Shown piece by piece: positions 10,210-27,079 of a stretch of DNA of 45,042 nt. The notes beneath the pieces were generated by a model. It was not told the origin of the DNA, did no database searches, and saw nothing but the letters and a program-made list of their open reading frames with translations. Numbering within the stretch: position 1 is the stretch's first letter; every line of letters starts with the position of its first letter. Both the position numbers and the translations under genes were made by a program. The stretch is from an uncultured Halobacteriovorax sp. (lineage in GTDB: Bacteria; Bdellovibrionota; Bacteriovoracia; Bacteriovoracales; Bacteriovoracaceae): NCBI GenBank assembly GCA_964352175.1, contig CAYGQW010000001.1, positions 1 to 45,042 of the forward strand, written 5' to 3'.

Positions 10210-11790
10210 TTAAATTGCGATAGATTTTGTGTGCATCTTATTTGCCCGACCAGAAGGATCAGCATTATAATCCTGCCACTTTGGAATCCATCGACTAACA
10301 TTTTTAACCATTCCAGCATGACCAAAATGATCCTCAAAGATACCTCTAAACAAGAAGGCCTCTTTAGTCATTGGAGTATTATGCGGATATAAATCTGCTG
10401 CCTTAGAAAAAATTTCATCATCAACCGTACGCTCACCTAGATCTTTTAACAGATCAATCCATGAATAACCTACACCGTCAGAGAATTGTTCTTTTTGACG
10501 CCATAAAACTTCTTCTGGTAACCACTCCCCTTCTATAAAGGCCTGGCGAAGAACGTCTTTTTCCATACGTTTACCAGGAATAATAATTTTATGTTCTGGA
10601 GAAACACCCATTGCTGTTTTTAGAAACTCTGGGTCTAAAAATGGAACTCGTGCCTCAACTGCTGCGCCCATCGTTGAGCGATCTGCGCGTAAAACATCTG
10701 AAGTATGAAGTCTCTTAACTCGACTCACACATTCTTGATGAAATTCAGTACTTGATGGCGCATGAGCAAAATAAAGATATCCTCCAAAAATTTCATCAGC
10801 TCCCTCACCTGATAGAACCACTTTAACACCACTCTTAGCAATCACTTTGGACATTAAATACATTGGAGTTGAGGCTCGAATGGTGGTGATATCATATGTT
10901 TCAGTTAACCAAATCATGTGTTCAATAGCTTTGATTCCATCTTCAATTGTTAGCACCACTTCGGTGTGATCACTGTCAATATGTTTGGCCACTTCTCTGG
11001 CGCGAATGAGATCGGGTGATTCTTTATCAAACCCAACGCTAAAAGTTTTTAAGCGTTTGCCTCGAGACCTTAGAAGTCTAGCTGCTATTGAGCTAACCAA
11101 GCTTGAATCAAGTCCCCCTGATAAAAGTGCTCCGACTGGTACGTCGCCCATAAGTCTTTTTTCTACAGATTTTATTAATGAATCACGAAGAAGAGTTCCG
11201 TCATGAGAAGGAATAATTGAATCATCGAACCAAGTAGGTTTATACCAACGCTCAAAACCTCGCTCCATGGTAAAAGTATGACCAGGTGGGAACTCTTCGA
11301 TTGTTTCACAATGCTCAAAAAGTGCTTTTTGTTCAGATCCAAACCAGAGACCGCCAGTTGCATCACGACCAACGTATAGAGGCTTTATACCGATAGCATC
11401 TCGAGCAGCAAAAATTCGACCTTGATCGGCAATTACAAAAGCGAAGTCGCCATCGATATGATCGATAACTTTCTCACCCCAAGCTTCATAGCCACGAAGA
11501 ATCGCTTCTGAATCTGATTTAGTCGTAAAGACATCACCGAGTTGGCCTCTAAGTTTTTGATGATTCCAGATTTCACCATTATGAACTAGTGCTATTTTTG
11601 AACTACCAACGATCGGTTGCTTTCCAGTGTGAAGATCAACAATGGCCAAGCGCTGGTGAACCATAACAATGCCCTCCGCGGTTACATGATGAGCTTTCTC
11701 ATCAGGTCCTCGATGGGCCAAATGCTCTGCACTTTGAAGAATTTGTTCTTGTTCAACTTTGCTACCAACTACGACTACGAATCCACACAT
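10210..11790 (-). CDS. asnB: asparagine synthase (glutamine-hydrolysing)
   Basis: The ORF track starts at GTG 11802. However, ATG 11790 gives the obligatory N-terminal MCG (Cys2 nucleophile of class II amidotransferases) and is preceded by GGAGG (complement of 11796-11800). The PP-loop SGGLDSS is present and the C-terminal domain is typical of AsnB. Confidence 0.9.
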   Translation of the reverse strand: MCGFVVVVGSKVEQEQILQSAEHLAHRGPDEKAHHVTAEGIVMVHQRLAIVDLHTGKQPIVGSSKIALVHNGEIWNHQKLRGQLGDVFTTKSDSEAILRGYEAWGEKVIDHIDGDFAFVIADQGRIFAARDAIGIKPLYVGRDATGGLWFGSEQKALFEHCETIEEFPPGHTFTMERGFERWYKPTWFDDSIIPSHDGTLLRDSLIKSVEKRLMGDVPVGALLSGGLDSSLVSSIAARLLRSRGKRLKTFSVGFDKESPDLIRAREVAKHIDSDHTEVVLTIEDGIKAIEHMIWLTETYDITTIRASTPMYLMSKVIAKSGVKVVLSGEGADEIFGGYLYFAHAPSSTEFHQECVSRVKRLHTSDVLRADRSTMGAAVEARVPFLDPEFLKTAMGVSPEHKIIIPGKRMEKDVLRQAFIEGEWLPEEVLWRQKEQFSDGVGYSWIDLLKDLGERTVDDEIFSKAADLYPHNTPMTKEAFLFRGIFEDHFGHAGMVKNVSRWIPKWQDYNADPSGRANKMHTKSIAI

Positions 11791-11969
11791 AAAGACCTCC
11801 ACTGATGTCTATTATTCAATATAATCGACATTTATTGAAGATAATTTAATTAAAAATGATTTATTTGTTATATTGACAATAAAAACATGAAAAATTGATG
11901 ATATTGCATAATTCAAACCAAACCTATATGGACTACTGAAGAATCTTCAATCACAATAGGAATAAATTG

Positions 11970-12599: not shown

Positions 12600-13485
12600 G
12601 TAAGCGCTCTGTCTCGGCTGCTACAAAGTTAATCTCCTCTCGGTCACAATTAGTTTGACCAACGACAGTCAGACGGTGAAGTCCTATATTTTTAGAGCCT
12701 TTACTCGTTGCTTTAAGAGAAGTTATTTCGATTAAGTCATCATTTCTTGAGGCGACTCTATCGGGAAGGACAGCAGCAATAGCACCACCACTCGCAGCCG
12801 CTCTAAGACTTTCAAAACTGTCACTAAGAATCATGGGTCGATCGATACTCACTTGTTTTAAGAATTTAGAAAAATATCGTGGCAAGCCATCACGACCTGG
12901 CTCAAGTGATCCATAGCCAATTTTATCTAATAGCTTTTTAGAAGGTGTAAGATTTTTAGAAATATAAAGACCTAGGCGATCTTCAGCAACGTCAATAGTA
13001 TAAAAACGATCAACATTATCATTTTCAGTAATCAAGGCCGAACAAAGCTCACCCTTCCTCAGCATAGTTAATAGGCTTGCCGTGCGAGAAATTTTCAAAC
13101 CAAGCCTAAGGTTTGGAATTTTCTTTTCAAAAGCACTAATAAGACCAGGTAAGATATTTATAGCGATACTTTCGTAAGTACCAAAATTTATCCAACTTAA
13201 TTCAGGCACTGGCGCACCATTAATATCTTTAAGTTTTTCAAAAGCTTCAAAGGCGGGCTTAACAATCTTTAAAATAGCAATAGCATCAGGAGTAGGAAGC
13301 ACACTACCCTTTTCACGTATTAATAAAGGTCGTCCAAAAGACTGCTCCAAAGAGGTTAGAGTCTGTGAAATAGCACTTGGTGTCACTTTTGCTTGTAAGG
13401 CAGCATGCTTTAAGCTTTTATGAGCTAAAACAAGGTCTAAAATCCATAATTTCTTAATCTGATCAACGTTTAAATCTCTCGACAT
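12592..13485 (-). CDS. LysR-family transcriptional regulator
   Basis: 297 aa. N-terminal wHTH (AALQAKVTPSAISQTLTSLEQSFGRPLLIREKG) followed by a LysR substrate-binding-type domain. Divergent from the YHS/cytochrome operon. Confidence 0.85.
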   Translation of the reverse strand: MSRDLNVDQIKKLWILDLVLAHKSLKHAALQAKVTPSAISQTLTSLEQSFGRPLLIREKGSVLPTPDAIAILKIVKPAFEAFEKLKDINGAPVPELSWINFGTYESIAINILPGLISAFEKKIPNLRLGLKISRTASLLTMLRKGELCSALITENDNVDRFYTIDVAEDRLGLYISKNLTPSKKLLDKIGYGSLEPGRDGLPRYFSKFLKQVSIDRPMILSDSFESLRAAASGGAIAAVLPDRVASRNDDLIEITSLKATSKGSKNIGLHRLTVVGQTNCDREEINFVAAETERLLN

Positions 13486-13595
13486 AAGTCCTCCTGAATA
13501 ATTAGTAAAACTAAACCCTCAATTAAGCAACACTAATCGTTACATAAGAAGGATTTACCTTTAAAAATTAACTAACGAAAACTGGAGGAAGAAAA

Positions 13596-14087
13596 ATGCA
13601 ATTAAGATGGAACAAAGTATTGAAAACAAGCTTATTGATGGCAATCCTTGGGATGATGACTTTAGCCGCTAAGGCTGATGATTTTAGAAATATAGAGCAA
13701 TACAACCTAGAAAACACTGTCTCTCTTAAGGGATATGACCCTGTATCATATTTTCCTGAAGGTGGATCAAACCCACAGATGGGAAATGCAGAATTTTCAC
13801 TTGAGTATAAAGGAGTCACTTATCTTTTTACCTCTCAAAGTAATCAAGATCAATTCCTAAGCGATCCATCAAAATATGAGCCAACCTATGGGTCATGGTG
13901 TGCATACGCAATGGCGTCTGGATCAAAAGTAGATATTCAACCACATTTATTCACCGTAAGTGGCAACAGACTTCATCTCTTTGTGGCCTCAAGAGCAAAG
14001 AGAAACTTTGATCGTGCAATTGAAGATCACGAACAAAGAGCTGATAGGTTTTGGAAACAAATTTCTGGCGAAGACCCAAGACTTTAA
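13596..14087 (+). CDS. secreted YHS-domain protein
   Basis: 163 aa. GGAGG RBS and signal peptide (LLMAILGMMTLAAKA). YHS-type motif LKGYDPVSYF...G...F...YKGVTYLF.S..N...F..DP.KY.P.YG.WCA. Confidence 0.7.
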   Translation: MQLRWNKVLKTSLLMAILGMMTLAAKADDFRNIEQYNLENTVSLKGYDPVSYFPEGGSNPQMGNAEFSLEYKGVTYLFTSQSNQDQFLSDPSKYEPTYGSWCAYAMASGSKVDIQPHLFTVSGNRLHLFVASRAKRNFDRAIEDHEQRADRFWKQISGEDPRL

Positions 14088-14110
14088 CAATTATTGCCAC
14101 GGGGGGAAAA

Positions 14111-14755
14111 ATGAAAATATTAGCAATACTATTTATTCTTACTTCCTGTGGTAATTATTCTGAAACAAAAGGTGTCCTTGAAGATTCATTTAGCAGAAAT
14201 TTAGATGCACCCATTGATTTTGAAACTATTAATGAAGCAATCATTCAACCTCATTGTATAAGTTGTCACCAACAGTATTCAACTTATGATGGAGTTAAAA
14301 ATGAAGCAAATAGTATCCTCAATGCAGTGACAACAAATAGGATGCCTAAAAATACTGCCCCTTTAAGTAATTCGAAAAAAGAACTACTGGCCGCATGGGT
14401 GGCAGCTGGTACACCTCTTGGAACAGATGCTCCGCCGCCAGTTAATCAAAAATTAGAAGCAACATGGGTATCACTTTCGAGCAAAGTATTTTTTCCCAAA
14501 TGTCTAGTTTGTCATAACCCTCAAGGTCAGGCGAAGTTTTTAGATCTTTCAAGTAGACAAGCTTTTTTTGAGCAAAGAGATCGCGATTTCGGCGGAGAAA
14601 AACTACTTAATTTTGAGCAACCTGAAGAGAGTTACCTGATCAGTGTCATTAACGACCCCTTTGAGCCAATGCCACCAATTTGGTCAAACATTGAACAGTT
14701 AAAGCCAGAGGAAGTTGAAGTTATCATTGAATGGATTGAGAAAGGTTTACCTTAG
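14111..14755 (+). CDS. di-heme c-type cytochrome lipoprotein (PSCyt-like domains)
   Basis: The track ORF starts at 14051 inside the YHS gene. ATG 14111 follows GGGGGG and gives MKILAILFILTSCGN (lipobox). Two CXXCH motifs (CISCH, CLVCH) are each followed roughly 30-60 residues later by an MP dipeptide, as in planctomycete-type cytochrome c domains. Confidence 0.7.
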   Translation: MKILAILFILTSCGNYSETKGVLEDSFSRNLDAPIDFETINEAIIQPHCISCHQQYSTYDGVKNEANSILNAVTTNRMPKNTAPLSNSKKELLAAWVAAGTPLGTDAPPPVNQKLEATWVSLSSKVFFPKCLVCHNPQGQAKFLDLSSRQAFFEQRDRDFGGEKLLNFEQPEESYLISVINDPFEPMPPIWSNIEQLKPEEVEVIIEWIEKGLP

Positions 14756-14763
14756 GAGACAAT

Positions 14764-15276
14764 ATGAAAAAACTATTAATTATCTTATTATTTATAACAA
14801 GTACTCAAGCAGAGGTTTTAAAACTCTCCCAAGGACAAGTTGAATTTAAAGCAAAAGGAAAGCCTGCTCTGATCAGCATAGACGGAAAGTCAAACCTTCT
14901 CAGAGGGACACTGACCGGAGAAGACAATCTTTTCGATGGCGACTTTGATCTTGAACTTACCAGCTTAGATACTGGTATCGAATTAAGAGATGATCATCTT
15001 AAAAACAAATACCTTGAAGTCGAAAAATTTCCAAATGCCAAGCTCACTTTTACGAAAACAAGAATAGAAAAAAATAAAGAAGTAGATTTTGAAGCAAAAC
15101 TCAATCTTCATGGTCAAGAAAAAATGGTGCAAGGTACTGCCATGCTAAATGATGATAATAGGCTAGAAGCTGAGTTTAAGATTAATCTTTCTGACTTTGG
15201 GATTGATATACCGAGCTTTAAAGGTATTACCGTGGCCAAAGAAGTAAAAATTAAAGTTAACGGAAAAGTTGAATAG
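14764..15276 (+). CDS. YceI-family periplasmic (polyisoprenoid-binding-like) protein
   Basis: 170 aa with a signal peptide. YceI signature region SLDTGIELRDDHLKNKYLEVEKFPNAKLTF. Confidence 0.8.
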   Translation: MKKLLIILLFITSTQAEVLKLSQGQVEFKAKGKPALISIDGKSNLLRGTLTGEDNLFDGDFDLELTSLDTGIELRDDHLKNKYLEVEKFPNAKLTFTKTRIEKNKEVDFEAKLNLHGQEKMVQGTAMLNDDNRLEAEFKINLSDFGIDIPSFKGITVAKEVKIKVNGKVE

Positions 15277-15284
15277 GTATATTT

Positions 15285-16379
15285 ATGAAAGCTTTTTTGC
15301 TTTTATTTTTTATAGTTCCAAGTATTTCATTAGCTTATATTGAAAATGTAACTCATGGTTACGTGAACTGTATGGCATGTCATGTCTCGCAAAGCGGTGG
15401 CGGTGTACTTACAGACTATGGAAGATCATTATCAAAAGAGTTAATGAGTACTTGGGCCGGATGGGATGGAATGGAGAGACCACTTCTTGGAGCTGTCTCA
15501 AATACAGAGAATGTCAAAATTGGTGGAAATTTCAGAACCATTCAAACTCACCTTAAAAACGATAATATAAGCCAAGGGCGTAAGTTTGTTATGCAGCAGA
15601 ATATTGAAGTTGCGACGAAGTATATGGACCTATGGATCGTTGCAACAGCTGGTGTGCAAGGCGGTCCTAGTCAGACTCCAACAAAGAATGATTTTTTATC
15701 AGAGAGACATTATATCTCTTGGGATGTAACTGATGAAATCAAGTTACGTGGTGGTAAGTTTAGAAGAAATTACGGCCTCAATGATCCGACACATACTAGA
15801 CTTACAAAGTCGCCATTAGGGTTTGGTTCAAATAGTGAATCTTACCAGTTAGAGTTTTCGAAATTCAGTGATACAGATGAGATCTTTATAGCGACAGACT
15901 TTGGCGATATTAATGATCCAAAAGCGACGGTAAATGAAAAATCATTTCTAATTAATTATGCTCGATATATCGGTGGAAAATCTAAACTAGGCGTTAACTA
16001 TCTTTATGGAGAAACAGGTGCAAATAGAAGAAACCTTTTTGGTATCTACTCTATCCAAAAGATTCCCAACGACTTTTATCTTAAGGGAGAAATAGACTAT
16101 CAACAAAATTTCTCTGGTGAGACAAAAACTAATTTATTAGCCTCGACATTTACGTTTGGATACCAGGGTATAAAAGGATTACTACCATATTTTGTCACAG
16201 AGTTTTTGCAAAGAGACTTAAAACAGCATAGTTCCAGAACCGACTTAGCCGGGATAGGCTTTCAATGGTTTCCACTAGCACACTTTGAATTTCAAGTTGA
16301 GTATCATAAAAGAACTGACAGAAACCCAAGAAAGACTAAAAGCGACATCTCTTGGCTTATGTTTCATTTTTACCTGTGA
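15285..16379 (+). CDS. putative outer-membrane beta-barrel protein with an N-terminal CXXCH motif
   Basis: 364 aa with a signal peptide. The mature N-terminus is YIENVTHGYVNCMACHVSQSGGG. The rest shows alternating-hydrophobic, Gly/Tyr/Asn-rich segments and an aromatic-rich C-terminus (WLMFHFYL) typical of barrels. The barrel assignment is inference only. Confidence 0.5.
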   Translation: MKAFLLLFFIVPSISLAYIENVTHGYVNCMACHVSQSGGGVLTDYGRSLSKELMSTWAGWDGMERPLLGAVSNTENVKIGGNFRTIQTHLKNDNISQGRKFVMQQNIEVATKYMDLWIVATAGVQGGPSQTPTKNDFLSERHYISWDVTDEIKLRGGKFRRNYGLNDPTHTRLTKSPLGFGSNSESYQLEFSKFSDTDEIFIATDFGDINDPKATVNEKSFLINYARYIGGKSKLGVNYLYGETGANRRNLFGIYSIQKIPNDFYLKGEIDYQQNFSGETKTNLLASTFTFGYQGIKGLLPYFVTEFLQRDLKQHSSRTDLAGIGFQWFPLAHFEFQVEYHKRTDRNPRKTKSDISWLMFHFYL

Positions 16380-16385: not shown

Positions 16386-17006
16386 ATGAATATACAATTA
16401 GAAAAAAGTATCAACTTTTATAACGAAATGGCGACAAGAAGATCAATTAGAGAGTTCTCTAATCAGTCGGTTGATTCATCAATTCTTATTAATGCAATTA
16501 AAACAGCTGCTACTGCGCCAAGTGGTGCCAACAAGCAGCCTTGGCATTTTGCTTTAATACAACAAACAGATATAAAAGAAAAAATCAGAACAGAAGCAGA
16601 ATCAATTGAAGAGGATTTTTATAAACGTAGAGCACCTAAGCAATGGCTAGAAGACCTAAAACCTTTCAACACAAACTCAAGTAAAGCATATCTAACCGAG
16701 GCAAGCTCATTAATCGTTGTGTTCTCCCGCACCCATTCTGAAGACGAGCTAGGATTATTACAAAAAACATATTACCCACTTGAATCAACGGGTATTGCAG
16801 TTGGTCTACTACTGGCCTCACTTCATCAGTCTGGACTAGCAACTCTAACTCACACACCTAAACCGATGGGCTTTTTAAATCAATTATTAGATTTTGATAA
16901 GACATACAAACCTTATATGATCATTGTGACGGGTCATCCTAAGTTACCCTTAAATTTACCCAATATTACGAAAAAGACTACTGATCAAATTCTAACTATC
17001 TTTTAA
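16386..17006 (+). CDS. nitroreductase-family flavoprotein
   Basis: 206 aa. Has RRSIREFS and APSGANKQPWHF, characteristic of the NADH oxidase/flavin reductase (nitroreductase) fold. Confidence 0.8.
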   Translation: MNIQLEKSINFYNEMATRRSIREFSNQSVDSSILINAIKTAATAPSGANKQPWHFALIQQTDIKEKIRTEAESIEEDFYKRRAPKQWLEDLKPFNTNSSKAYLTEASSLIVVFSRTHSEDELGLLQKTYYPLESTGIAVGLLLASLHQSGLATLTHTPKPMGFLNQLLDFDKTYKPYMIIVTGHPKLPLNLPNITKKTTDQILTIF

Positions 17007-18224
17007 ATAGTTTTGATATAATTTGAAGTACAGCTTCTTGTAATCATCGTCCTTTAGTATTGAAGACCAATTTTTTCTGAAGTTCACAAAACTTTCAAAG
17101 TCAGCACTAAAACCATTAAATTTTGAGTGATTCATATTAAAAATCGATTCCAATAAATTAGCAACCGCCTTGATCCCAAATTTCTCAATACCTATTTGTC
17201 TCGTATCGACTTCCTTTTCCAGAGAGAGAAACATTAGCTGAGCGAATTCTTTAATGGAAAAGGTTGGGCCAAACTTATCAAATTTTACATTGCATCCATC
17301 AGCAATGCCCTCTTTAGTTAAGTCTAAAAAACCTCCCCAATTTGTTAAGACACAAGGAATATTTTTTAAGACCGCCTCTCTTGGTGCAAGTCCATAATCT
17401 TCATCATGAAAAGTACTAGTACTTACAAAGCAATCCGTCTCATCTAGAACTTTATTAACTGAGGAGTAAGGTACAGCAGGATGAAACTCAATAAGCTCAA
17501 CATACCTAGAAGGAACCTTTGATAACTCTAATTCTAAATATTTATTAAAGTCTTTATCGGGAAATTGTATTTGCCTAACGGGACACCAAATATGATCTAC
17601 ATCCCCATATATTTTCAGTTTCACATCTTTATTCGTCATTTCTTTTAATAAGCAAAAAGCTGTGACTAATTGTGGAATATTTTTAGCGAAAGAGAGTCGG
17701 CCGATATAAGTGAACTGAAATATATCACTTTTAGATGTTATTCTTTTGTTGGCAAAGATTTCATCTTGAAGTGGAAAAGGAGATTTAAAAACAATCTCTT
17801 TGTTTTTAACATAGCCTTTTAATAATTTAACCTGAGCATCAGAAGCACATAAAAATGCTGTCTTTAAGTTTTCGAGGTAATGACCTAACTCAAACCACTT
17901 AATGGCATCTAAATGAAATATGCCATAGATATAAAAAATAAAGGTACATGAGTTTGAAATTTTTTCGGCTTGTAGCTTTTTTATCAGATTAATAGGAACC
18001 GGTCTATGATCAGCAAAGAAAACAATCTCAGGATGTAGTGTTCGACATATGGAGACTATACTGTCTTCTTGTGCATCAATTGAATTATGATCTAAAAAAG
18101 CCTCTTGAAATCTATAGTTACCCTGCAAGTACGCTAGACTGGCTTTAATACCATCTACAATCACCTTTCGACTCATCCAGTCATCATCGTTAATTGAAGA
18201 TATCACTATTACTGTTTTTGTCAT
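16992..18224 (-). CDS. GT-B fold glycosyltransferase (GT4-like)
   Basis: 410 aa. The C-terminal half contains the EX7E-type region HDEDYGLAPREAVLKNIPCVLTNWGGF. This is the first gene of the AT-rich island and converges on the nitroreductase gene with a 15-nt overlap. Confidence 0.65.
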   Translation of the reverse strand: MTKTVIVISSINDDDWMSRKVIVDGIKASLAYLQGNYRFQEAFLDHNSIDAQEDSIVSICRTLHPEIVFFADHRPVPINLIKKLQAEKISNSCTFIFYIYGIFHLDAIKWFELGHYLENLKTAFLCASDAQVKLLKGYVKNKEIVFKSPFPLQDEIFANKRITSKSDIFQFTYIGRLSFAKNIPQLVTAFCLLKEMTNKDVKLKIYGDVDHIWCPVRQIQFPDKDFNKYLELELSKVPSRYVELIEFHPAVPYSSVNKVLDETDCFVSTSTFHDEDYGLAPREAVLKNIPCVLTNWGGFLDLTKEGIADGCNVKFDKFGPTFSIKEFAQLMFLSLEKEVDTRQIGIEKFGIKAVANLLESIFNMNHSKFNGFSADFESFVNFRKNWSSILKDDDYKKLYFKLYQNYLKDS

Positions 18225-18286
18225 TAACTAATAATTTATCATATATAATCTACTGAATATATCTCTATCTCGAAATAGGTTTTTAG

Positions 18287-18886
18287 ATGAAACTTTATAC
18301 TGATCTAAAAAATAAAAATGAATACTTAGATTGCCAAATTAAGTTAAGGAATCACAAACACTTAATTGTTAAGGACTTTTTCAAGCATGAAGTTTTGAAT
18401 TATGTACTTCAAATTATGGGGAACAATGAAGTTTACTTTAGAGATAAGGGTCGTTCATACATCGGAAATGACGAAACATTTGATTTCTTCCACTTCAAAT
18501 CTAAGATGAATGTATTAATCAATGAAGCAGCTTTTATCAATCAAATTAGAAAAATAACTGGTGACGAAAGTATAATAGAAGCAAGAGCAAGGTACTACAG
18601 GCTCATCGGAGAAAAAAAACATTTTCTTGATTGGCATAACGATGACGGCGAGCCAAATAGAGTTTTTTCATGCCGTATAGAACTTTCAAAGAATGAATAT
18701 ACTGGTGGTGAATTTGAAATCAGGGAGAAAGAGAACCAAAAAGTGTATTGCTCTATAGGAGCCCTTGATTTTGGTAGTGCCCTTTTCTTTCCTATTGATT
18801 ATGTAAACTTAGAGCATCAAGTCAAACCCGTGACCAGCGGAGAGCGGTACTCAATCCTTCTTTGGTTTTATTGTAAAAACAAATAG
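18287..18886 (+). CDS. 2-oxoglutarate/Fe(II)-dependent oxygenase (prolyl-hydroxylase-like), paralog A
   Basis: 199 aa. HxD...H facial triad candidates WHNDDG and LEHQV, plus the 2OG-binding Arg context SGERYSILLWF. Colinear with paralog B at 25325-25924. Confidence 0.7.
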   Translation: MKLYTDLKNKNEYLDCQIKLRNHKHLIVKDFFKHEVLNYVLQIMGNNEVYFRDKGRSYIGNDETFDFFHFKSKMNVLINEAAFINQIRKITGDESIIEARARYYRLIGEKKHFLDWHNDDGEPNRVFSCRIELSKNEYTGGEFEIREKENQKVYCSIGALDFGSALFFPIDYVNLEHQVKPVTSGERYSILLWFYCKNK

Positions 18887-18989
18887 TTAGGCAACACATG
18901 CCCACATATAAAGGTACTTCCGTCTTAATATATTTTTTAAAAAAGAAGTAAAAACAGATAATTAGTATAAAATCTGTTTAAATATGGAT

Positions 18990-19028
18990 ATAACATGCTA
19001 CATTATTATTAAATATAATATTACGGAG
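18990..19028 (+). promoter_or_regulatory. candidate sigma70-like promoter plus RBS for the small-peptide/GT2 transcription unit
   Basis: TATAAT at 19014-19019. ATAACA (4/6 match to TTGACA) at 18990-18995 with 18-nt spacing. GGAG at 19025-19028 lies 8 nt before ATG 19037. AT-rich DNA makes chance matches likely. Confidence 0.3.
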
Positions 19029-19036
19029 CAGTAGAA

Positions 19037-19174
19037 ATGAGTGAAGATTCTAATGACTTGTTTAATAAGAAAGTTATCCTAAAAGATGAAGTCCTTGGTG
19101 AATTTTCAGTATTTGAAGTTCCTGAAGATGAAGACTTAGGTATATTCGCATTCGGTAAACTCATCGAACTCTAA
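19037..19174 (+). CDS. 45-aa acidic peptide, a candidate modified-peptide precursor; not in the supplied ORF track
   Basis: ATG 19037 follows GGAG with 8-nt spacing. Translation is MSEDSNDLFNKKVILKDEVLGEFSVFEVPEDEDLGIFAFGKLIEL. TAA at 19172-19174 lies 10 nt before the GT2 start. This is the only sizeable intergenic gap in the island. Confidence 0.45.
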   Translation: MSEDSNDLFNKKVILKDEVLGEFSVFEVPEDEDLGIFAFGKLIEL

Positions 19175-19184
19175 AGACATCTAA

Positions 19185-20237
19185 ATGATAAGTGTTATCG
19201 TACCGACACTAAATAGTGAATCAACACTAGCACTTTGCCTAAAATCAATCTTTGATCAACATATATCTTTGCCCTTTGAGGTTATTGTCAGCGACTGTGG
19301 AAGTAGCGACACAACCGTCCAAATCGCGAAACGATTTAATGCACACATTACCTTAAGTCAAAAGAAGTCAGCGTCTGCTGCCAGAAATAAAGGCGCACAA
19401 ATAAGCTCAGGTAGCTATCTTGCGTTTATAGATTCAGATGTTGTCTTAAGTGATAACTGGCTTGAACAGAACTTTCAATCACTGAACGAAACAATCTTTG
19501 ATGTTTCTCAATCACCAGTAATACCAAGCGGCCCAAGTACATTCATTAACTCCTATCGCAAGCAGTTATCAAAGATATACACCAAAGGTACTTATAACCA
19601 TATTGATGTCGATCAAGTGCCTAAAATGACAGTTAATACTGCTGCTTGCATGCTAAAAAAGGAAGCCTTTGTAAAAGCCGAAGGCTTTGATGAAAACCTA
19701 CTAAAGTTAGAAGACACAGATCTCATGACGAGAATTTTTTACTCTTGTGGAAATTTCACCATTAGTAAGAATACAACTGCGCAAGTTTTTCGAACCGGCA
19801 ACTTGCTGGACTATATAGCTAGAAGCTTTCAAATAGGCTGTCAAACTAAAAGTTTCAAAAATAAATGGCAGCATACTTCCACGATACCTAGTCATCCATA
19901 CTTTACAAACTTCAAACATAGTATATTTTTTAAGTTTTTATTAATGACAAGTAAAGTGGGTGAACATTTAAGCCAAAACACAAACACCAACTTTAAAAAA
20001 TATATACCAAAAACAATAAAGTCGTACAAAAAAGCAGTGATTAAAAACGGAGATCAAACATATATTTTAAATCCATTTTCTCGAATCATAAATGGAACCT
20101 TCAAATCATACATCTACAACATTCTAACAAAGAAAAGTCATCCAATTGAAATCATTAACTCTAGCAACAACCAGCTATTCATCAGTGCAAAGAATATTGA
20201 GCAATTAAAAAATGATAACATCCTCTATGAAATATAA
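19185..20237 (+). CDS. GT-A fold family-2 glycosyltransferase with an extra ~100-aa C-terminal region
   Basis: 350 aa. Canonical GT2 N-terminus ISVIVPTLNSE...EVIVSDCGSSD..., ARNKGA and the DXD motif FIDSDV. The C-terminal third has no recognisable motif. Confidence 0.85.
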   Translation: MISVIVPTLNSESTLALCLKSIFDQHISLPFEVIVSDCGSSDTTVQIAKRFNAHITLSQKKSASAARNKGAQISSGSYLAFIDSDVVLSDNWLEQNFQSLNETIFDVSQSPVIPSGPSTFINSYRKQLSKIYTKGTYNHIDVDQVPKMTVNTAACMLKKEAFVKAEGFDENLLKLEDTDLMTRIFYSCGNFTISKNTTAQVFRTGNLLDYIARSFQIGCQTKSFKNKWQHTSTIPSHPYFTNFKHSIFFKFLLMTSKVGEHLSQNTNTNFKKYIPKTIKSYKKAVIKNGDQTYILNPFSRIINGTFKSYIYNILTKKSHPIEIINSSNNQLFISAKNIEQLKNDNILYEI

Positions 20238-22012
20238 GCCGAATCAACAGGGAAAAACTTCTCTTTTCTTCCAGAATGTCCTGATACAGAGAAAACGATA
20301 TTACCTTTAAGGTCATCAACAAGAGATGTGCGTTTCCTTATAGCTAAGCTACAGTCAAAATAATCAAAAAATAGATTTTTTGTAGCATCAATTAAATTCT
20401 GTTTTAAAAACTCATCTAACGACAGAGAACTAGCATGACAAACCTTGTTAGCACTGTCTAGCTTGAACGGAAAATAAAACTGCTCATGATTAATAATTCC
20501 ATCAACCGTACTAGTTAATGAGGATCGATCTGAATCAACGAGTGAATCTTTACCTTTAAGAAAGCTGCTTACTAAAGTATAGGAAAGTTTTAACTTACGA
20601 TCCAATTTTCGATTGATATTAAAATTATGAACTTTTGATTTTACCTCAGACTTGGAATTAATTAGTGTAAAGGAAGTAGAGTCAAAAATTTTATGACCTG
20701 AGACAACAGAGTCGAGTCGGCCGAATTGAATCTTACTAAAAGAGTCTTGTTCATTAAGGTCGTCTAAAAATAAGTTAAAGGCTTTAATCGTAAAAATTTT
20801 TAAACTATTAATATCTAAATCACAGTTATCGTAAAGGTTTCTTAAAGCCGTAACAAAAAGCAAGCAGTCAGAACTATCAACAAAAGTAAGGCGTGCCATT
20901 TGGGAAATGTAGTTAAAGAATAAATCCTCAAAATGACCAAAGCTATAGTTTCTTAAAAGGTTGGCTTGCTTAAATTTTTTAAAATAAATATGAAGTGTAT
21001 TTAAGAACTGCACCAAGGAACAATAAGCATGTAAAACATCCTTACCTTCAAGGTCACAAAGATCCTCAATCATGTGAGTAAGCTCACCGCTCCCCTTGTC
21101 GCGTTCTACAGAGAACATAAAAGTATAGTTACCAGGGCCAAACTTATTATCTATCCCCTGCATATCAACTAATTTGCCATCAACGCAAAAGTTTTCATGA
21201 TTAAAATGAGGATGATTAAAACCCATATGCACAAAACTTGCTAATTGAAACACAAGGTTGGAAAAATAAGTTTCGCCTTTGTCTTCATCAATTGAACTAA
21301 GAAATAAAAAATCATTTGCAGCTAAAAGGTCTGTATTTAACTGTGAAATTCTTAGCGAATAAGGCTCTCTTGCCATGGGATAAGAGAGTAAATTATTTGT
21401 AGATTTTGCATAAAAAAGTGCAATACTTGAGACTGAACCTAAAAAGGTACCAGAAGCGACAATTCTTGATAAGAAAAGTGAGTATATTGACTCGTGAAGA
21501 CTGGAACCTCCCCAACTATTGCCCAAATCGTCAAATCCAACAAATTGATTTCGGCCAATGCCTTTAATCTCGATATTACCTATAAGGTAGTTTCGTCCTT
21601 TTCCAAAATGAGCTTTAAAAGATGAGCAAAATGATTCAACTAAAACATACAAAGAGTCATTATCCAGACTACCATGAGAATTAATCAGTCCACCTGGGTT
21701 ATCATTAGTAAGATAGATAAGATTTTCAAACCTATAAGTAGAGGAAGATGAAGGTCTGCTAAATCCGTTACGATAAGATAAGCATAGATCATCAATATTA
21801 TTAGGACGACTATTTTGAGTGGTAGTCTTCAGACGTTCAAGAAAAGATAGCGACTCAATCAAATCTTTTTCTTTTCTACGATCAATATAAAAAACAAAAG
21901 AATCAGAAGGTTTTGAAACAGAAACGGCAGAAAAAAAAGAACTCCAAAGATGACGATAATCCTTGGTAGATATCAAGTTTATATGATTAAACACATCATT
22001 TGTCATAAACAA
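20225..22012 (-). CDS. large protein of unknown function with possible protein-kinase-like/SelO-like motifs
   Basis: 595-aa ORF in very AT-rich DNA, where long chance ORFs are unlikely. The probable start is ATG 22006 (track start is TTG 22012). Motifs seen: IEIKGIGRN (res ~147-155), GGSSLHES (res ~168-175), and FVHMGFNHPHFNHENFCVDGKLVDMQG (res ~260-286). These resemble the Gly-rich loop, the conserved Glu, and the catalytic-loop Asn/Mg-binding Asp of kinase-fold enzymes. The gene lies directly downstream of the PqqD-like gene. Confidence 0.6.
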   Translation of the reverse strand: MFMTNDVFNHINLISTKDYRHLWSSFFSAVSVSKPSDSFVFYIDRRKEKDLIESLSFLERLKTTTQNSRPNNIDDLCLSYRNGFSRPSSSSTYRFENLIYLTNDNPGGLINSHGSLDNDSLYVLVESFCSSFKAHFGKGRNYLIGNIEIKGIGRNQFVGFDDLGNSWGGSSLHESIYSLFLSRIVASGTFLGSVSSIALFYAKSTNNLLSYPMAREPYSLRISQLNTDLLAANDFLFLSSIDEDKGETYFSNLVFQLASFVHMGFNHPHFNHENFCVDGKLVDMQGIDNKFGPGNYTFMFSVERDKGSGELTHMIEDLCDLEGKDVLHAYCSLVQFLNTLHIYFKKFKQANLLRNYSFGHFEDLFFNYISQMARLTFVDSSDCLLFVTALRNLYDNCDLDINSLKIFTIKAFNLFLDDLNEQDSFSKIQFGRLDSVVSGHKIFDSTSFTLINSKSEVKSKVHNFNINRKLDRKLKLSYTLVSSFLKGKDSLVDSDRSSLTSTVDGIINHEQFYFPFKLDSANKVCHASSLSLDEFLKQNLIDATKNLFFDYFDCSLAIRKRTSLVDDLKGNIVFSVSGHSGRKEKFFPVDSAYIS

Positions 22013-22065
22013 TGAATAAGCGCAAAAATATAAATTGAAACTGTAAATTTGAGTTAGAGAACTGC

Positions 22066-22332
22066 TTAAACAAGTTCAATGAGATCCTGTTCTTCAAGCT
22101 TTTTAATAAAGTCAGACACCTTATCTTTAACGCTATCATTAGAAAGCTTTAAATCTTCAACTTTTTTATAAAAGTCACTTTCATCTATGCCGTCTTCAGA
22201 TAAAAGCAGCCAGATATTTTTGAAGTGACCGCGTAAAGTGTAAAAAGCTTCATTACCTGTAAATGAAACCAAGTAGATTTCATCTGCTTTCTCTGTCACC
22301 ACTACAGAACTTTTAATTTTAATAATACTCAT
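22066..22332 (-). CDS. stand-alone PqqD-like protein (RiPP recognition element type)
   Basis: 88 aa. N-terminal beta-strand region (VVVTEKADEIYLVSFTGNEAFYTL) is followed by ...NIWLLLSEDGIDESDF...VKDKVSDFIKKLEEQDLIELV. This matches the PqqD pattern (y.LN....iW.ll.......l.......d...Dv..Fl..L.e.gLi). Confidence 0.6.
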   Translation of the reverse strand: MSIIKIKSSVVVTEKADEIYLVSFTGNEAFYTLRGHFKNIWLLLSEDGIDESDFYKKVEDLKLSNDSVKDKVSDFIKKLEEQDLIELV

Positions 22333-22418
22333 TGATACCCCTTAATTAAGTATTATAACTTGAATATATTAGGATATAAATAAATAAAACCTAACGCCCC
22401 ACACTAAATACGAGGTTG

Positions 22419-23288
22419 TCATGGAAATCTCAAAGCCATTCGCCTTAAGAGCTTGGAAAAATGAGACTGTACATATTCAGGATCAAGAAACAAGAACAAT
22501 ATTGCAATACAAAAGCTTGAAAGAAAATATAAGTGAATAACAGGGATAATCAAAAGATGGAAAATAATAAAGCAAAGCACAACATGCTTTTTATACCTAG
22601 ACCATAAGGCAAAAGCTCCCAATGTTTCACCAATGATAACTGCATAGTTTCCAATATAGAGTATAAAATAAGGCAATATTGGCAAGTTTAATGATTTAGA
22701 AAAGTGAAGGAGTGCGTCTCCCGTATACCATATTTCATTATTGAATTTTGCAAATCCGGCATTAAAATAGATAACTGACAAACTTAACTTCATCAAAAAA
22801 ACAAAACTGTTATGTATTGGAGTAAAGTATTGAATATTTTTTGAAATAAGCTTTGGCCGTTTTGATAATTCAAGAACTAAATGCTCGTTCGTAACGATAA
22901 AACATAGACAGAACAGAGCTCTACATACAATTCGATCTATACCAGTAACATATAGAAAGCTTCCATGTATAAAGAAAATATTTATAATAAAAATAATTCT
23001 AAGTAATTTCACCCCTCCCCAACCTAATCCATAAAAAATAATCAAGAGCAAAAAAACTAGATGAAAATATGGGGTAAAAATGAAATCGAAGAAATCAAAA
23101 AGATTTACAAGTCCAAAATATTCAAAACTAAAATAAGTCGACTTAATATAATAAATATTAAAATTTATTTGTCTTTCAAGATAAAAAACAAAAAGCAAAA
23201 TAGAAAATACGATTCTAAATATCGACAAATTATAAGTTGTATCTTTTGTCCAAAAAAAAGAATCGAGTTTATCTATAACCTTAATCAT
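22419..23288 (-). CDS. HTTM-domain (vitamin-K-dependent-carboxylase-related / SdpB-like) polytopic membrane protein
   Basis: 289 aa with at least 7 hydrophobic segments. The N-terminus, ...NLSIFRIVFSILLFVFYLER, resembles the conserved start of HTTM domains (sLa.fRi.fG...). The ATG overlaps the stop of the upstream gene (ATGATTAA). Confidence 0.5.
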   Translation of the reverse strand: MIKVIDKLDSFFWTKDTTYNLSIFRIVFSILLFVFYLERQINFNIYYIKSTYFSFEYFGLVNLFDFFDFIFTPYFHLVFLLLIIFYGLGWGGVKLLRIIFIINIFFIHGSFLYVTGIDRIVCRALFCLCFIVTNEHLVLELSKRPKLISKNIQYFTPIHNSFVFLMKLSLSVIYFNAGFAKFNNEIWYTGDALLHFSKSLNLPILPYFILYIGNYAVIIGETLGAFALWSRYKKHVVLCFIIFHLLIIPVIHLYFLSSFCIAILFLFLDPEYVQSHFSKLLRRMALRFP

Positions 23289-23769
23289 AATTTAACTCCT
23301 TACAATCAATTTCAATTGTATTAGTTAAACTACCTTCATCTAACTCTTGCTTTGAATGATATGTATCAATAATACTATCTTGATTCTTACCACTAACTTC
23401 ATAGATGAATATCTTCAAGCGAGACGAGGGATCGAGTCCCGAGCACAGATGCCTATTCCTATGAGAAACTTGATATTTTTTATAAAAAAACATCGCTTTA
23501 TAAAACATATTATTGTGGCGATGGTCGAACAAAACATTGTAAGGCAGCATAGATCTGTTTTTAACAAATAAAAGATGTTCTTCATTGTTTATATATTGCA
23601 CTACTTTATATTTAGTATTATATTTTTTAACTAAAAAAAGCGCCCAACTTCCGTCTTGAAAGAAAGTCTTTCCCAGTACATTAAAAAACGATTTTTTGTA
23701 GTAATTGTTTATCGTCGTTCCCTCGAGAGGTATGACGATAAACAGAAGAGATAGAAATATCAACAGCAA
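23281..23769 (-). CDS. small N-terminally anchored protein translationally coupled to the HTTM gene (SdpA-like position)
   Basis: 162 aa from the first canonical start, TTG 23769 (MLLIFLSLLFIVIPLEG...). The in-frame upstream codons ATA 23805/ATT 23802 would add IIKKKYQTLLSF, a positively charged n-region. Size and gene order mirror sdpA-sdpB, but no sequence motif is recognised. Confidence 0.45.
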   Translation of the reverse strand: MLLIFLSLLFIVIPLEGTTINNYYKKSFFNVLGKTFFQDGSWALFLVKKYNTKYKVVQYINNEEHLLFVKNRSMLPYNVLFDHRHNNMFYKAMFFYKKYQVSHRNRHLCSGLDPSSRLKIFIYEVSGKNQDSIIDTYHSKQELDEGSLTNTIEIDCKELNYD

Positions 23770-23824
23770 GAAAGATAAAAGGGTTTGATATTTTTTTTTA
23801 ATTATTACCCCATGCTTTAATTAT

Positions 23825-25294
23825 CTAATTCATCAAATCAGACAAATCTAAGTCTACATAAGTGAAATTAGAAACATTTATAATATCTCTTGATAACTTA
23901 TGTCTTTGTCCAAATGGATCAGTCATAAACTGATGATCGATGGAGAAATAAGAATTATCAATAAAAACAATCTTTTCGAGCTCATTAATCCTAATGACCA
24001 TGGATTCTCCTTCTTTCAGAAAAGTAGAAACAGAGGTCAACAACTGAAGTCTTTGGTCGTCAGAAATAGAATTAACTATATTTATATTTTTATGCTCGAA
24101 GGAGTAAATAGTCTTAAAAATTTCATTCTTCAGCTTAAAGCCTTCATTTATAGATTTATAATATATTTTATAATTAATAGTCGTCCTATAAATACCTGGT
24201 GCAATCACGAAAAATACAATAACACTGAACCATTTGGATTTATTATTTTTAAAAAGTATATGCATCATGCTCAAAATAATAGGGACTAACCACACTGAGC
24301 GTGAAATTGCTGTATGATTGGAAATGAGACAAAATGGCAATGCAATTGCCGATAAAGCCAAGAAATAACTTAAAAATAAGCGAATCTCTTTCTTCTTTTT
24401 CAAACTCACATAGAATAAAGCCAAAATAAATAAGACAGGAGCAATAAAATAAAATGAATGATTATAGCTGAGCAATAAACTGGCCTTAGAATCAAAACTA
24501 TTGAGTCCTGTAGATAAATAATAACTAAAAACTTTATGGACGTTTGCAAAATCAATTTTCAAAAAGCCTGCATCAGCAAGTTTCCAAATAAAAACCCTCA
24601 CAAAGACATAGACCAGACTCGGAATACTAATAATTAAGAGCTCAACTACTCTCTTAATGTCTTTTTTTAGGAAATGAAAAATTAAAAGAAATGGAAAGGT
24701 TATGGCTGCTTCATGGCAAGTTATAGCAATAATCTGAAAAATAAATAATTTTATCAACAAAAATCTATCAAAATTCACTTTGCGATCTATCAGATTACAT
24801 AAGTAGCACACATATAGAAAAAGTAAGTGGTATTTAAATGTAAAAGAAGATACCAAGAGTGATGGTGCGGAAGAGTTAAATAAAACATAGGTTAAAAGGA
24901 TACCTATCTGAAAAATATCCAGATTTTTTTTATTCTTAAATAAAAAATTTATTCCAAAGATAAAAAAACAAAAATTTAGCAAGACATAGAAATAGGCAGA
25001 ATTTAACCTTAGTAATTCAAAAAGATAATATTGTGAGAAAAATGACGACGGGCGATATTGGCCAAAATTTATGGTCGATGTATAAATTTTAAACCAATAG
25101 TCTATTGAATGAGTATATTCAGAATTATAAGCTTTAAAAAATCTGAGAGAATCAGAATCTAATTGAATATTAAAAAGGCAAAGTAAAATAGCAATTACAA
25201 AAATCGGGGTACCTAACAAAATATATTTCCGAAGATCACGAGTAAAATAGCGCATTAAATCCGACTTTTTTTGTTTGGCATTAATTGTTAACAC
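23825..25294 (-). CDS. polytopic membrane protein, possibly a GT-C-type glycosyltransferase or polymerase
   Basis: 489 aa with roughly 11-13 hydrophobic segments across the first ~370 residues, followed by a soluble C-terminal ~120 aa. An acidic DSDS motif (NIQLDSDSLRFF) sits directly after the first TM segment, where GT-C enzymes carry their DxD/ExD loop. Confidence 0.5.
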   Translation of the reverse strand: MLTINAKQKKSDLMRYFTRDLRKYILLGTPIFVIAILLCLFNIQLDSDSLRFFKAYNSEYTHSIDYWFKIYTSTINFGQYRPSSFFSQYYLFELLRLNSAYFYVLLNFCFFIFGINFLFKNKKNLDIFQIGILLTYVLFNSSAPSLLVSSFTFKYHLLFLYVCYLCNLIDRKVNFDRFLLIKLFIFQIIAITCHEAAITFPFLLIFHFLKKDIKRVVELLIISIPSLVYVFVRVFIWKLADAGFLKIDFANVHKVFSYYLSTGLNSFDSKASLLLSYNHSFYFIAPVLFILALFYVSLKKKKEIRLFLSYFLALSAIALPFCLISNHTAISRSVWLVPIILSMMHILFKNNKSKWFSVIVFFVIAPGIYRTTINYKIYYKSINEGFKLKNEIFKTIYSFEHKNINIVNSISDDQRLQLLTSVSTFLKEGESMVIRINELEKIVFIDNSYFSIDHQFMTDPFGQRHKLSRDIINVSNFTYVDLDLSDLMN

Positions 25295-25324
25295 GCTTAA
25301 GAATAACGTATATAATAATAAAAT

Positions 25325-25924
25325 ATGAAATTTTTTTCAAAACTAAGAAATCCACAAGCATATTTAGACTACCAAAGGATCTTCCAAGAAGATAAATATG
25401 TCATCGTTAATAATTTTTTTCATAGCGATTTTCTAAATTCTTTAATAACTATTATGAGTGATAGACAGGACTACTATATACCCTCTACTCACAATTTAGG
25501 ACTAGACGATACTTTTAAATTTACCCCTCTCGATCGAAAGAGTGAGATTCTTCTTAATGATGAAAAATTCTTACATGAAGTAAGGATGTTTACCGGAATA
25601 AGCTCAATTACGCATGCCAAGCCTCGATTCTACAGAATTAAATCGGGTGCAGAGCACTTCCTCTCTTGGCATAATGATGACGGCGAACCCAATAGAGTTC
25701 TCGCCTGTCGGATTGAGCTGTCAACTAGTTTTTATAAGGGTGGTGAATTTGAAATAAGAGAAATAGGAAAGAAAGAACCATTTGTTTCAATTGGACAACT
25801 AAAGTTCTCGCAAGCGGTATTTTTTCCTGTAGAAACAAATAAATTTGAACACCAAGTAAAACCCCTAACCGAAGGAGAAAGATACTCTTTTTTAATTTGG
25901 TTCTATGAAGGAGCAAGATTATAA
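25325..25924 (+). CDS. 2-oxoglutarate/Fe(II)-dependent oxygenase, paralog B
   Basis: 199 aa, colinear with paralog A. The core is nearly identical: HFLSWHNDDGEPNRVLACRIELS...GGEFEIRE...FEHQVKPLTEGERYSFLIWF. Confidence 0.7.
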   Translation: MKFFSKLRNPQAYLDYQRIFQEDKYVIVNNFFHSDFLNSLITIMSDRQDYYIPSTHNLGLDDTFKFTPLDRKSEILLNDEKFLHEVRMFTGISSITHAKPRFYRIKSGAEHFLSWHNDDGEPNRVLACRIELSTSFYKGGEFEIREIGKKEPFVSIGQLKFSQAVFFPVETNKFEHQVKPLTEGERYSFLIWFYEGARL

Positions 25925-26844
25925 ATATCGGAATAAAAGAAATACAAATTTACGAACCAGAAGATAAAATTTCGGCCGAGTCCTTAGGGATTAAGTTCTC
26001 CTTAGAGGGATCATTTATTGAGGAAAAAATAGGATTTAGGAACTTTGGAAAATTTTCGAAACAAGAAGATAATTTCTTTGTATTACAGAATGTCATTAAA
26101 CAACTTAAACGTTATGAAAATATTAAAAATAAAATTGACTTTTTAATAGTAAGTACTCCAATGCCTAGTCATATAGCTCCACATATGTCTGAAATGCTAC
26201 GTGATCAGCTTGAGCTTTCTTCAAATGTATTTACCCTTGATGTAAATCTTGGTTGCACCGGTTATGTAAAACCTCTCATGATTATTAATTCACTTATGAA
26301 AGATTATAAATTCAAGCAGGGAATCCTATTAACAATTGCTCAAACTAGAAAATCCATACAAGATAATGACAAAGACACAAACTTAATTTTTGGTGACACA
26401 GCAAGTGCAACTTTAATTAGTGATGATACGAACTATAAGTTTAATTCTTTCAATTTTGGCTCAAACTCAAAAAAGGATAGTTTTAAAGCAATTATTGGAA
26501 ATACAGGCAAACATTTCACTATGGATGGTAGAGGGGTTTATGAATTTGTACTTAAAAATATTCCACCTGCAATACGTGAGATAAGTGAAAATAATGAAAT
26601 TGATTATTATATATTTCACCAAGCCTCAAAGGTTATCGTTGAGCAATTAGCTAAAAGATTAAAAATAGAAGAAAATCAATATAGCTTCAATACGAAGATG
26701 CCTGGAAATTCAGGCGCTACAACTATCCCATATAATTTAAAAAAAATAATTGAGAATAAACAATATAAAAAAATACTGCTTAGCTCTTTTGGATCAGGCC
26801 TTGAATGGGCAAATTGTATTTTAGAAAGGGTCGATAATGAGTAA
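25921..26844 (+). CDS. KASIII (FabH-like) condensing enzyme/acyltransferase with a probable non-canonical start
   Basis: The track lists only 26161-26844. The frame is open from 25909 and encodes a FabH-like N-terminus (INIGIKEIQIYEPEDKISAESL...). Cys-His-Asn triad contexts are NLGCTGY, IFHQAS and PGNSGATTIP. Starting at ATA 25921 places the Cys at residue 112. GAAGGAG (25907-25913) lies 7 nt upstream of ATA 25921. There is no ATG/GTG/TTG in frame before 26161. Confidence 0.65.
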   Translation: MNIGIKEIQIYEPEDKISAESLGIKFSLEGSFIEEKIGFRNFGKFSKQEDNFFVLQNVIKQLKRYENIKNKIDFLIVSTPMPSHIAPHMSEMLRDQLELSSNVFTLDVNLGCTGYVKPLMIINSLMKDYKFKQGILLTIAQTRKSIQDNDKDTNLIFGDTASATLISDDTNYKFNSFNFGSNSKKDSFKAIIGNTGKHFTMDGRGVYEFVLKNIPPAIREISENNEIDYYIFHQASKVIVEQLAKRLKIEENQYSFNTKMPGNSGATTIPYNLKKIIENKQYKKILLSSFGSGLEWANCILERVDNE

Positions 26845-27079
26845 CGAACAAGCTATACAATCTATACAAAACTCTTTTGTTGAAGCTGGGTTTGAGGGAA
26901 AGCTAGATTATAAAAATCTAGCGATACCACTAGATCAGCAAGGGATTGATTCATTAACCATGATGGCATTTGTTTTTGAGTTAGAAGAATCAACAAGTTT
27001 TAGATTACCTAATCATATGCTGCAAAAAGGCATTACTTTAAAACAAATTATTCAATTTTTATGTTCCGAATCTAAATAA
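26837..27079 (+). CDS. acyl/peptidyl carrier protein (ACP/DltC-like)
   Basis: 80 aa. Phosphopantetheine attachment context QQGIDSLTMMAFVFELEE. 8-nt overlap (ATGAGTAA) with the KASIII gene. Confidence 0.75.
   Translation: MSNEQAIQSIQNSFVEAGFEGKLDYKNLAIPLDQQGIDSLTMMAFVFELEESTSFRLPNHMLQKGITLKQIIQFLCSESK

Follow-up and report, generated by a model that had tools for sequence, protein, structure and literature searches.

Results

A short ORF precedes a glycosyltransferase gene

The stretch of DNA analysed here, called the window throughout, comprises 45,042 nucleotides of contig CAYGQW010000001.1 from an uncultured Halobacteriovorax sp. (assembly GCA_964352175.1). Its plus strand carries an open reading frame (ORF) of 45 codons that runs from an ATG at 19037 to a TAA at 19172-19174, encodes the peptide MSEDSNDLFNKKVILKDEVLGEFSVFEVPEDEDLGIFAFGKLIEL, and stops 10 nt before the ATG of a family-2 glycosyltransferase (GT2) gene at 19185-20237 (+). 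Directly 5' of the peptide ORF is a gene for a 2-oxoglutarate (2OG)-Fe(II) oxygenase (18287-18886, +). On the other side, the gene for a 595-aa protein (p595; 20225-22012, -) is convergent with the GT2 gene and overlaps it by 13 nt, and is followed by the gene of an 88-aa PqqD-like protein (22066-22332, -). An original prediction, made from the sequence alone, had proposed that the 45-aa product is the precursor of a modified peptide; the position of the ORF and the 10-nt spacing that it gave were exact.

The stop-to-stop segment that contains the ORF begins at 19019 and holds a single start codon, the ATG at 19037, and on the plus strand of the intergenic gap this is the sole ORF running from a start to a stop. 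By direct reading, a Shine-Dalgarno-like GGAG lies at 19025-19028 (+), 8 nt 5' of the ATG, as had been predicted. The residue counts (Asp/Glu 12, Lys 4, Ser 3, and no Thr, Cys or Tyr) agree with the earlier description of an acidic peptide without Cys and with few Ser or Thr.

The gap itself (18887-19184, 298 nt) had been described as the only substantial non-coding gap of the island in which these genes lie. It is the largest there, and a second gap of 236 nt exists at 25925-26160. The suggested TATAAT hexamer was found at 19014-19019, with a weak -35 sequence (ATAACA) 18 nt further upstream, and would, if used as a promoter, give a transcript whose leader is no longer than about 10 nt. Promoter-like matches were not enriched in this AT-rich stretch (7 versus 10.8 ± 3.5 in shuffled sequences), so the promoter is unproven. 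The RNA upstream of the peptide ORF gave no Rfam match and no significant structure. The whole gene set is contained in a low-GC island at approximately 17000-30000 (28-32% GC versus 36-40% in the flanks), which is compatible with horizontal acquisition or with a specialised cluster.

Coding potential and conservation of the peptide ORF

A codon-usage score was trained on 31 genes of the window against their non-coding frames. The peptide ORF scored 0.453 bits/codon, ranking first among the window's 263 small ORFs (those of 30-80 aa), and 45-codon windows of real genes averaged less (0.296 ± 0.143 bits/codon). An antisense ORF of 47 aa that overlaps the peptide gene (19021-19164, -) had a score of 0.058 and no ribosome-binding site, and is almost certainly spurious.

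A word-indexed search of 5.8 billion proteins with the peptide returned only the peptide itself. Exhaustive phmmer comparison with 1.84 billion representatives returned the peptide and protein P0122, with no credible homologue; P0122, a 1531-aa repeat protein whose score was inflated by its repeats, was rejected. After these searches, a second locus was reached by way of the neighbouring GT2, whose reciprocal closest relative (P0007, 35% identity) is encoded on L020, a 44-kb Joint Genome Institute metagenome contig. There, a 50-aa ORF (MSDEDKSIFEEIKLIDDELGSFSKFTVSDSAEKELSGQDIHAFGIKMIEL) is located 6 nt 5' of the start of the orthologous GT2 gene, and has its own GGAG at a distance from the ATG similar to that in the window. 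Both peptides start with MS[DE][DE], contain an internal DE-(V)-LG-x-FS-x-F-x-V and terminate in AFG-(I)-K-[LM]-IEL-stop, giving the conserved blocks MS[DE][DE]...F, DE.LG.FS.F.V and AFG.K.IEL-stop. The Ser of the G-x-F-S-x-F segment is the only internal hydroxyl residue conserved between them.

The BLOSUM62 score of the two peptides was 60, compared with 3.4 ± 8.7 (global) and 24.8 ± 5.1 (local) in 20,000 shuffles (z 6.5-6.9, p ≤ 1e-4). Of the 2576 real small ORFs in the loci that were fetched, the L020 peptide ranked first, the runner-up scoring 38, and with 36 loci searched as 14,324 six-frame segments it was the top phmmer match (E = 0.29). Different codons were used at 12 of the 20 identical residues (for Ser2, AGT in the window and TCA in L020) and nucleotide identity over the aligned codons was 75/135 (56%), which shows that selection acts on the protein sequence and not merely on its being translated. 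DNA sequencing runs from one biofilm-metagenome study were identical to the window and provided no variants, and a search for RNA runs returned none.

These results bear on two ways in which the ORF could be without a functional product. It is very improbable that the ORF is an open frame that arose by chance in an AT-rich gap and its likeness to L020 a coincidence. The shortness of the ORF, a promoter-like site that does not exceed chance, and a single homologue with a modest phmmer E-value would all fit such a frame, but that top match falls exactly at the syntenic position, the shuffles and the first rank among real small ORFs separate it by a wide margin, the MS[DE][DE] start, the IEL-stop end and the GT2 spacing are common to both loci, and no small ORF of the window has better codon usage. 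We also regard it as improbable, to a lesser degree, that the ORF is a regulatory upstream ORF (a leader peptide) that steers GT2 by translational coupling or attenuation and whose product has no function. Such an ORF would be short and would stop close to the GT2 start, as this one does in both loci (6-10 nt), yet the amino-acid blocks were kept while the DNA diverged and most identical residues were recoded, the upstream RNA has no Rfam element or significant structure, and the codons are chosen as in a gene that is well expressed. By these comparisons the 45-codon ORF is very likely a real gene. Conservation of the frame in syntenic loci, which the original prediction had named as a check, was found at L020, the sole syntenic locus obtained.

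A five-gene cassette common to the window and L020

From the gene order and the sequence similarities, the window and L020 hold one conserved cassette that consists of the peptide, GT2, a protein of 500-600 aa, a PqqD-like protein and an oxygenase. The convergent protein, p595 in the window, has 506 aa in L020 (p506), where the overlap with the GT2 gene is 6 nt; the two share 27% identity and the sequence YFPFKLDS-NKV. The PqqD-like protein has 81 aa in L020 and is 30% identical to its 88-aa counterpart, with VSFTGNEAF in both. The oxygenase of the window belongs to PF13640 and has a paralogue in the island, and that of L020 is a Cupin_8/JmjC protein encoded between the p506 and PqqD-like genes. 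Since the L020 cassette sits between housekeeping genes (YchF and a lytic transglycosylase SLT), the five genes travel as a unit.

The GT2 assignment was confirmed by Pfam (PF00535, E = 2e-25). In the confident AlphaFold 2 (AF2) model (mean predicted local distance difference test, pLDDT, 88.8) the protein has a GT-A domain and a helical region, and approximately residues 285-350 form a beta-rich C-terminal domain. This last domain is conserved in the GT2 clade, with the motif YxLxPxxRxI, and was modelled as seven strands with a single helix; its role could be to bind a peptide or a partner. The best NCBIfam model was that of MftF (TIGR03965), at 82.8 bits versus a cut-off of 280, and the fold search gave no SunS- or ThuS-type enzyme among the 50 matches listed. 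The relationship to the sunA/sunS type that had been suggested for this gene pair was not borne out, GT2 being a generic GT-A enzyme by fold and its best curated match falling far under the cut-off.

The homologues of p595 found at L008, L009 and L020 are GT2-adjacent in all three. Searches with the p595 family gave no match in Pfam (the SelO model included), NCBIfam or PDB sequences. When the p595 profile was compared with E. coli SelO by hhalign, a match of 76% probability was obtained (E = 2.3e-5, 152 columns, 24% identity) whose aligned columns span KGxG...LG and GF-x-H-x-x-x-N-x-[DE]-N...G...D. Controls were negative, the unrelated PpsA giving E = 0.06 in the same comparison. Modelling of p595 by AF2 without an alignment reached a pLDDT of 33. 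The protein is likely, on this profile evidence, a SelO-like nucleotide or phosphate transferase with a kinase fold related to the SelO protein adenylyltransferases, in agreement with the kinase-fold assignment made earlier. A link between p595 and DUF4135-like proteins of the sister clusters described below was considered and was unsupported.

The 88-aa protein gave no Pfam match, PF05402 included. A two-sequence profile was built from it and compared by hhalign with the sister loci's PqqD family, of which the L001 and L002 members have PF05402 matches on record; the match covered the full length (95%, E = 3.9e-8). Weak full-length matches were obtained to the lasso PqqD chaperone 9x90 and to TbiB1 (5v1u), and the NCBIfam model lasso_PqqD_Bac matched below its cut-off (E = 0.0068). 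The profile comparison thus supports the PqqD-like label of the original prediction despite the Pfam result, and the protein is a predicted recognition element, or peptide chaperone, of the kind found with peptides that are made ribosomally and modified after translation (RiPPs).

The oxygenase 5' of the peptide gene was matched by PF13640 (E = 1.4e-12) and is a predicted peptide hydroxylase. Pfam also identified its paralogue as a 2OG-Fe(II) oxygenase (25325-25924, +; 45% identity), as had been predicted for both genes. The two 199-aa paralogues flank the core of the island. A link between these oxygenases and 165-aa HxD...H proteins of the sister clusters was not significant.

Sister clusters and further peptide families

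The GT2 clade is found mostly in metagenome-assembled genomes (MAGs) of Bacteriovoracaceae and Halobacteriovoraceae, and a genome scan recovered sister clusters and no close relative. Sufficient flanking DNA was available for 13 related loci, and in 11 of them GT2 adjoins a PqqD-family gene, with some of the assignments made by eye. Often a B12 radical S-adenosylmethionine (SAM) enzyme is encoded there that matches, over its full length and with 200 bits, TIGR03975, a RiPP maturation radical SAM C-methyltransferase. Other products of these loci are LanM-dehydratase-like or desaturase-like proteins, or the p595 homologues (L008 and L009). A further locus, L007, has a gene for a 978-aa protein (12788-15724, -) starting MTKIKCTDFFIVRYPTLP that looks LanB-dehydratase-like by eye and lies near GT2, PqqD and sulfotransferase-like genes. 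This neighbour suggests that enzymes of the lanthipeptide or thiopeptide type, too, are combined with the GT2/PqqD toolkit.

Scanning the intergenic regions of the sister loci revealed further peptide families. The first, of 36-47 aa with the pattern MxxxxKKE[FY]xGFGELxK[VL]x[LI]...[VI]Y[AGS]I..., is encoded on the minus strand at L002 8706-8849, L005 1412-1555, L008 4270-4380, L009 9774-9887 and L012 8808-8927, and has five more database members (P0124, P0129, P0131, P0132 and P0134). These FGEL...VYAI peptides adjoin genes for the TIGR03975-type B12 radical SAM enzyme, PqqD, GT2 and LanM-dehydratase-like proteins, mostly in Bacteriovoracaceae MAGs. The second family, ...SFGTYEKVKIEL...YALN...PFPT, is encoded at L001 12346-12507 (-) and L038 10319-10471 (-), includes protein P0133, and follows the pattern ...[SF]FG[TH]YEK[VI]...YALN...P-rich...GPFPT. 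The PFPT genes are located between genes for uncharacterised proteins of 300 and 230 aa, beside PqqD and a fatty-acid-desaturase-like gene that is joined with GT2 in one operon. None of the curated NCBIfam models covers these two families or the peptide of the window.

Like the window, the sister clusters (L002, L005, L008, L009 and L012 for the first family, L001 and L038 for the second) have homologous GT2 and PqqD genes with a small acidic peptide by the GT2 operon; unlike it, they have a B12 radical SAM methyltransferase, a LanM-dehydratase-like protein or a desaturase-like one. By eye the window peptide had been suspected to belong to the FGEL...VYAI family. This was rejected, at a score of 1.2 bits that was equalled by 8.5% of the shuffles, and no FGEL...VYAI peptide is encoded elsewhere in the window.

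Common to all three peptide types are an acidic start resembling MS[DE][DE] and the motif FG..K.[ILVM]E[ILVM]. The pattern FG.{0,4}K.{0,2}[ILVM]E[ILVM], which was chosen post hoc, occurred 10 times in 675 k six-frame residues, and six of the occurrences were candidate peptides. The FG..K.IEL-like motif forms the very C-terminal end of the window and L020 peptides, and in the other types it is found in the N-terminal half.

Other genes of the island and the window

Three genes upstream in the minus-strand operon (22419-25294, -) encode a multi-pass membrane protein of 289 aa, a protein of 162 aa and a further membrane protein, of 489 aa. None of the three has a family match, the minimal L020 cassette is without all of them, and they are possibly accessory. 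The 289-aa protein is weakly similar to membrane proteins of related clusters (E = 3.8e-4). It had been labelled HTTM, with Glu carboxylation of the peptide as a speculative consequence, and this found no support: no match was returned by Pfam (E ≤ 10; the HTTM model unmatched), NCBIfam (E ≤ 1) or PDB sequences (E ≤ 10). With the HTTM identity unsupported, so is Glu carboxylation.

Further along the island, 26161-29967 holds KASIII-like, ACP-like (PP-binding) and MBOAT (DltB-like) genes and two genes for uncharacterised proteins, which may form an acyl-transfer module tied to the cassette pathway. An MBOAT protein 34% identical to that of the window, followed by an 82-aa ORF, is encoded near the L002 cluster. 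Immediately to the right of the island, behind a VanZ-like gene and 11 kb from the cassette, are two S8 subtilase genes (30484-33442) that together with a trypsin-like protease gene span 30484-34524. All three products could act as leader proteases, or could simply belong to the set of proteases that a predatory lineage typically has; subtilases of this kind may be common in the lineage. A tRNA-Met gene (CAT; 40455-40531, +) was the only Rfam or ARAGORN match of the window.

Discussion

The product of the 45-codon ORF is, in our judgement, probably the substrate of a five-part, RiPP-like peptide-modification cassette, with relatives in predatory bacteria of the Bdellovibrionota type. From the conservation of the gene and of the cassette, and from the family assignments of its members, we infer the substrate role, and the same sequence data suggest a binding site, a chemistry and an order of steps. 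The peptide would be translated together with GT2, the two genes being 10 nt apart. The 88-aa PqqD-like protein would then bind a conserved stretch of the peptide, for which the invariant C-terminal AFG-x-K-x-IEL is the best candidate. This stretch, which resembles the FG..K.IEL leader motif of the sister clusters, could act as a recognition sequence of the follower type. Held in this way, the peptide may be handed to the enzymes: the oxygenase would hydroxylate a side chain, the SelO-like enzyme would transfer AMP, another nucleoside monophosphate (NMP) or phosphate onto a hydroxyl, for which the Ser of G-x-F-S-x-F is the obvious candidate acceptor, and GT2 would attach a sugar either to that Ser or to the newly made hydroxyl. 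The proposal that the peptide is a candidate precursor served by GT2 and a PqqD-like recognition element is upheld by the L020 cassette and by the ties of the GT2 clade to PqqD proteins, RiPP-type enzymes and small peptides.

Several results weigh against a substrate role. The fold matches of GT2 are generic GT-A enzymes that glycosylate polymers, not peptides, and in the AF2 model its C-terminal domain is not a classical winged-helix recognition element. The PqqD, SelO and MftF matches are all under the curated cut-offs. No leader protease or exporter is present in the five-gene cassette of either the window or L020. Only two members of the peptide family were found, a metagenome scan with generic motifs having given just unrelated GT2s, and the window peptide has no significant similarity to the FGEL...VYAI family of the sister clusters. 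The island also encodes a family-1 glycosyltransferase (GT1) and a membrane protein that is large and polytopic, alongside MBOAT, ACP and KASIII, a set that would also fit modification of an envelope glycan or lipid.

Part of this evidence would also be expected if the ORF encoded a small acidic protein that is not a substrate and helps GT2 and the SelO-like enzyme to act on another acceptor, for instance a glycan or lipid of the envelope. Its part could be that of an accessory subunit, an adaptor, a regulator or a LysW-like or scaffold-like carrier. Such a protein would agree just as well with the conservation and coding evidence, and the polymer-modifying fold matches of GT2, the envelope-type genes of the island and a minimal cassette that has no protease or exporter speak for it; a strictly conserved C-terminus together with acidity presumably also recalls carrier or scaffold peptides. 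We nevertheless consider an accessory protein rather unlikely. The known role of PqqD-family proteins is the binding of precursor peptides, one such protein is conserved in the cassette, and neither cassette offers another peptide candidate. Moreover, in the sister clusters the same families of GT2 and PqqD proteins are accompanied by peptides and by enzymes that are plainly of the RiPP kind, and the minimal L020 cassette is without all of the envelope-type genes.

With the peptide taken as a substrate, the cassette works most like, by analogy, the RiPP pathways that depend on a recognition element and include tailoring enzymes. One system for comparison is that of the paeninodin-type lasso peptides, which have kinases for tailoring and a PqqD-like B1 protein that stands alone. 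The window cluster resembles them in its short precursor-like gene, its discrete PqqD-like protein of about 90 aa and its predicted kinase-fold and other tailoring enzymes. It differs in that neither the window nor the L020 cassette has an Asn-synthetase-like cyclase or a transglutaminase-like B2 protease, the predicted kinase-fold protein of the window is SelO-like and not HPr-kinase-like, and the acidic peptide has no lasso core features. Elsewhere in the window, 7 kb outside the low-GC island, an ORF at 10210-11802 looks like an asparagine synthase by sequence reading.

Mycofactocin loci (MftA, the PqqD-like recognition element MftB, the radical SAM enzyme MftC and the GT2 protein MftF) share with the window a small peptide, a PqqD-like protein and a GT2 for which MftF is the best curated model. 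The score of that match falls far short of the MftF cut-off, however, the island has no radical SAM gene, the window has no MftC-type enzyme, MftD or MftE, and the peptide ends in IEL, not in the GVY of MftA. Glycocin loci (SunA/SunS, GccA/GccF) likewise have a small peptide gene beside a GT2-family gene, whereas the window peptide has no Cys for a helix-loop-helix disulfide scaffold, the genes of the window include no C39-ABC exporter and no thiol-disulfide oxidoreductase (Dsb-like), and, to our knowledge, glycocin systems use no PqqD protein. The original prediction had held a classical S- or O-glycocin unlikely, and the absence of Cys and Thr, the three Ser residues and the lack of exporter and oxidoreductases are in keeping with that view. 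The missing features (cyclase and B2; MftC and GVY; Cys, exporter and oxidoreductases) ruled out an identity with lasso peptides, mycofactocin and glycocins, respectively.

The SelO-like protein aligns with the catalytic core of E. coli SelO/YdiU, an AMPylase/UMPylase, including KGxG and N-x-D-N...D; the match differs from a full SelO assignment in covering only about 150 residues at 24% identity, with the Pfam SelO model unmatched. Nucleotidylated ribosomal peptides are a known product type in microcin C (MccA/MccB), where the enzyme MccB is E1-like and not of the kinase fold. In the full-text literature searched, neither the cassette of the window nor a peptide-modification cluster with a SelO-like enzyme was described. 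The AMP-transferases of the SelO family are known to be stress enzymes that modify proteins; they are not known to take part in making natural products.

Tentatively, and with more doubt than for the substrate role itself, the cassette may represent a new RiPP class from predatory-type bacteria, in which a PqqD-like protein reads a follower sequence, a SelO-like pseudokinase AMPylates the peptide, and the 2OG oxygenase and GT2 add hydroxyl and sugar to it, to yield a glyco-nucleotidyl peptide. If true, this would be the first SelO-family enzyme to serve as a RiPP tailoring enzyme. The source lineage is barely explored, largely uncultured and related to predatory bacteria. The occurrence of at least three unrelated small-peptide families on one GT2/PqqD toolkit, outside the NCBIfam models, is useful for genome mining, and the conserved combination of a SelO-like protein, PqqD, GT2, an oxygenase and a peptide offers a testable route to nucleotidylated or glycosylated peptide chemistry.

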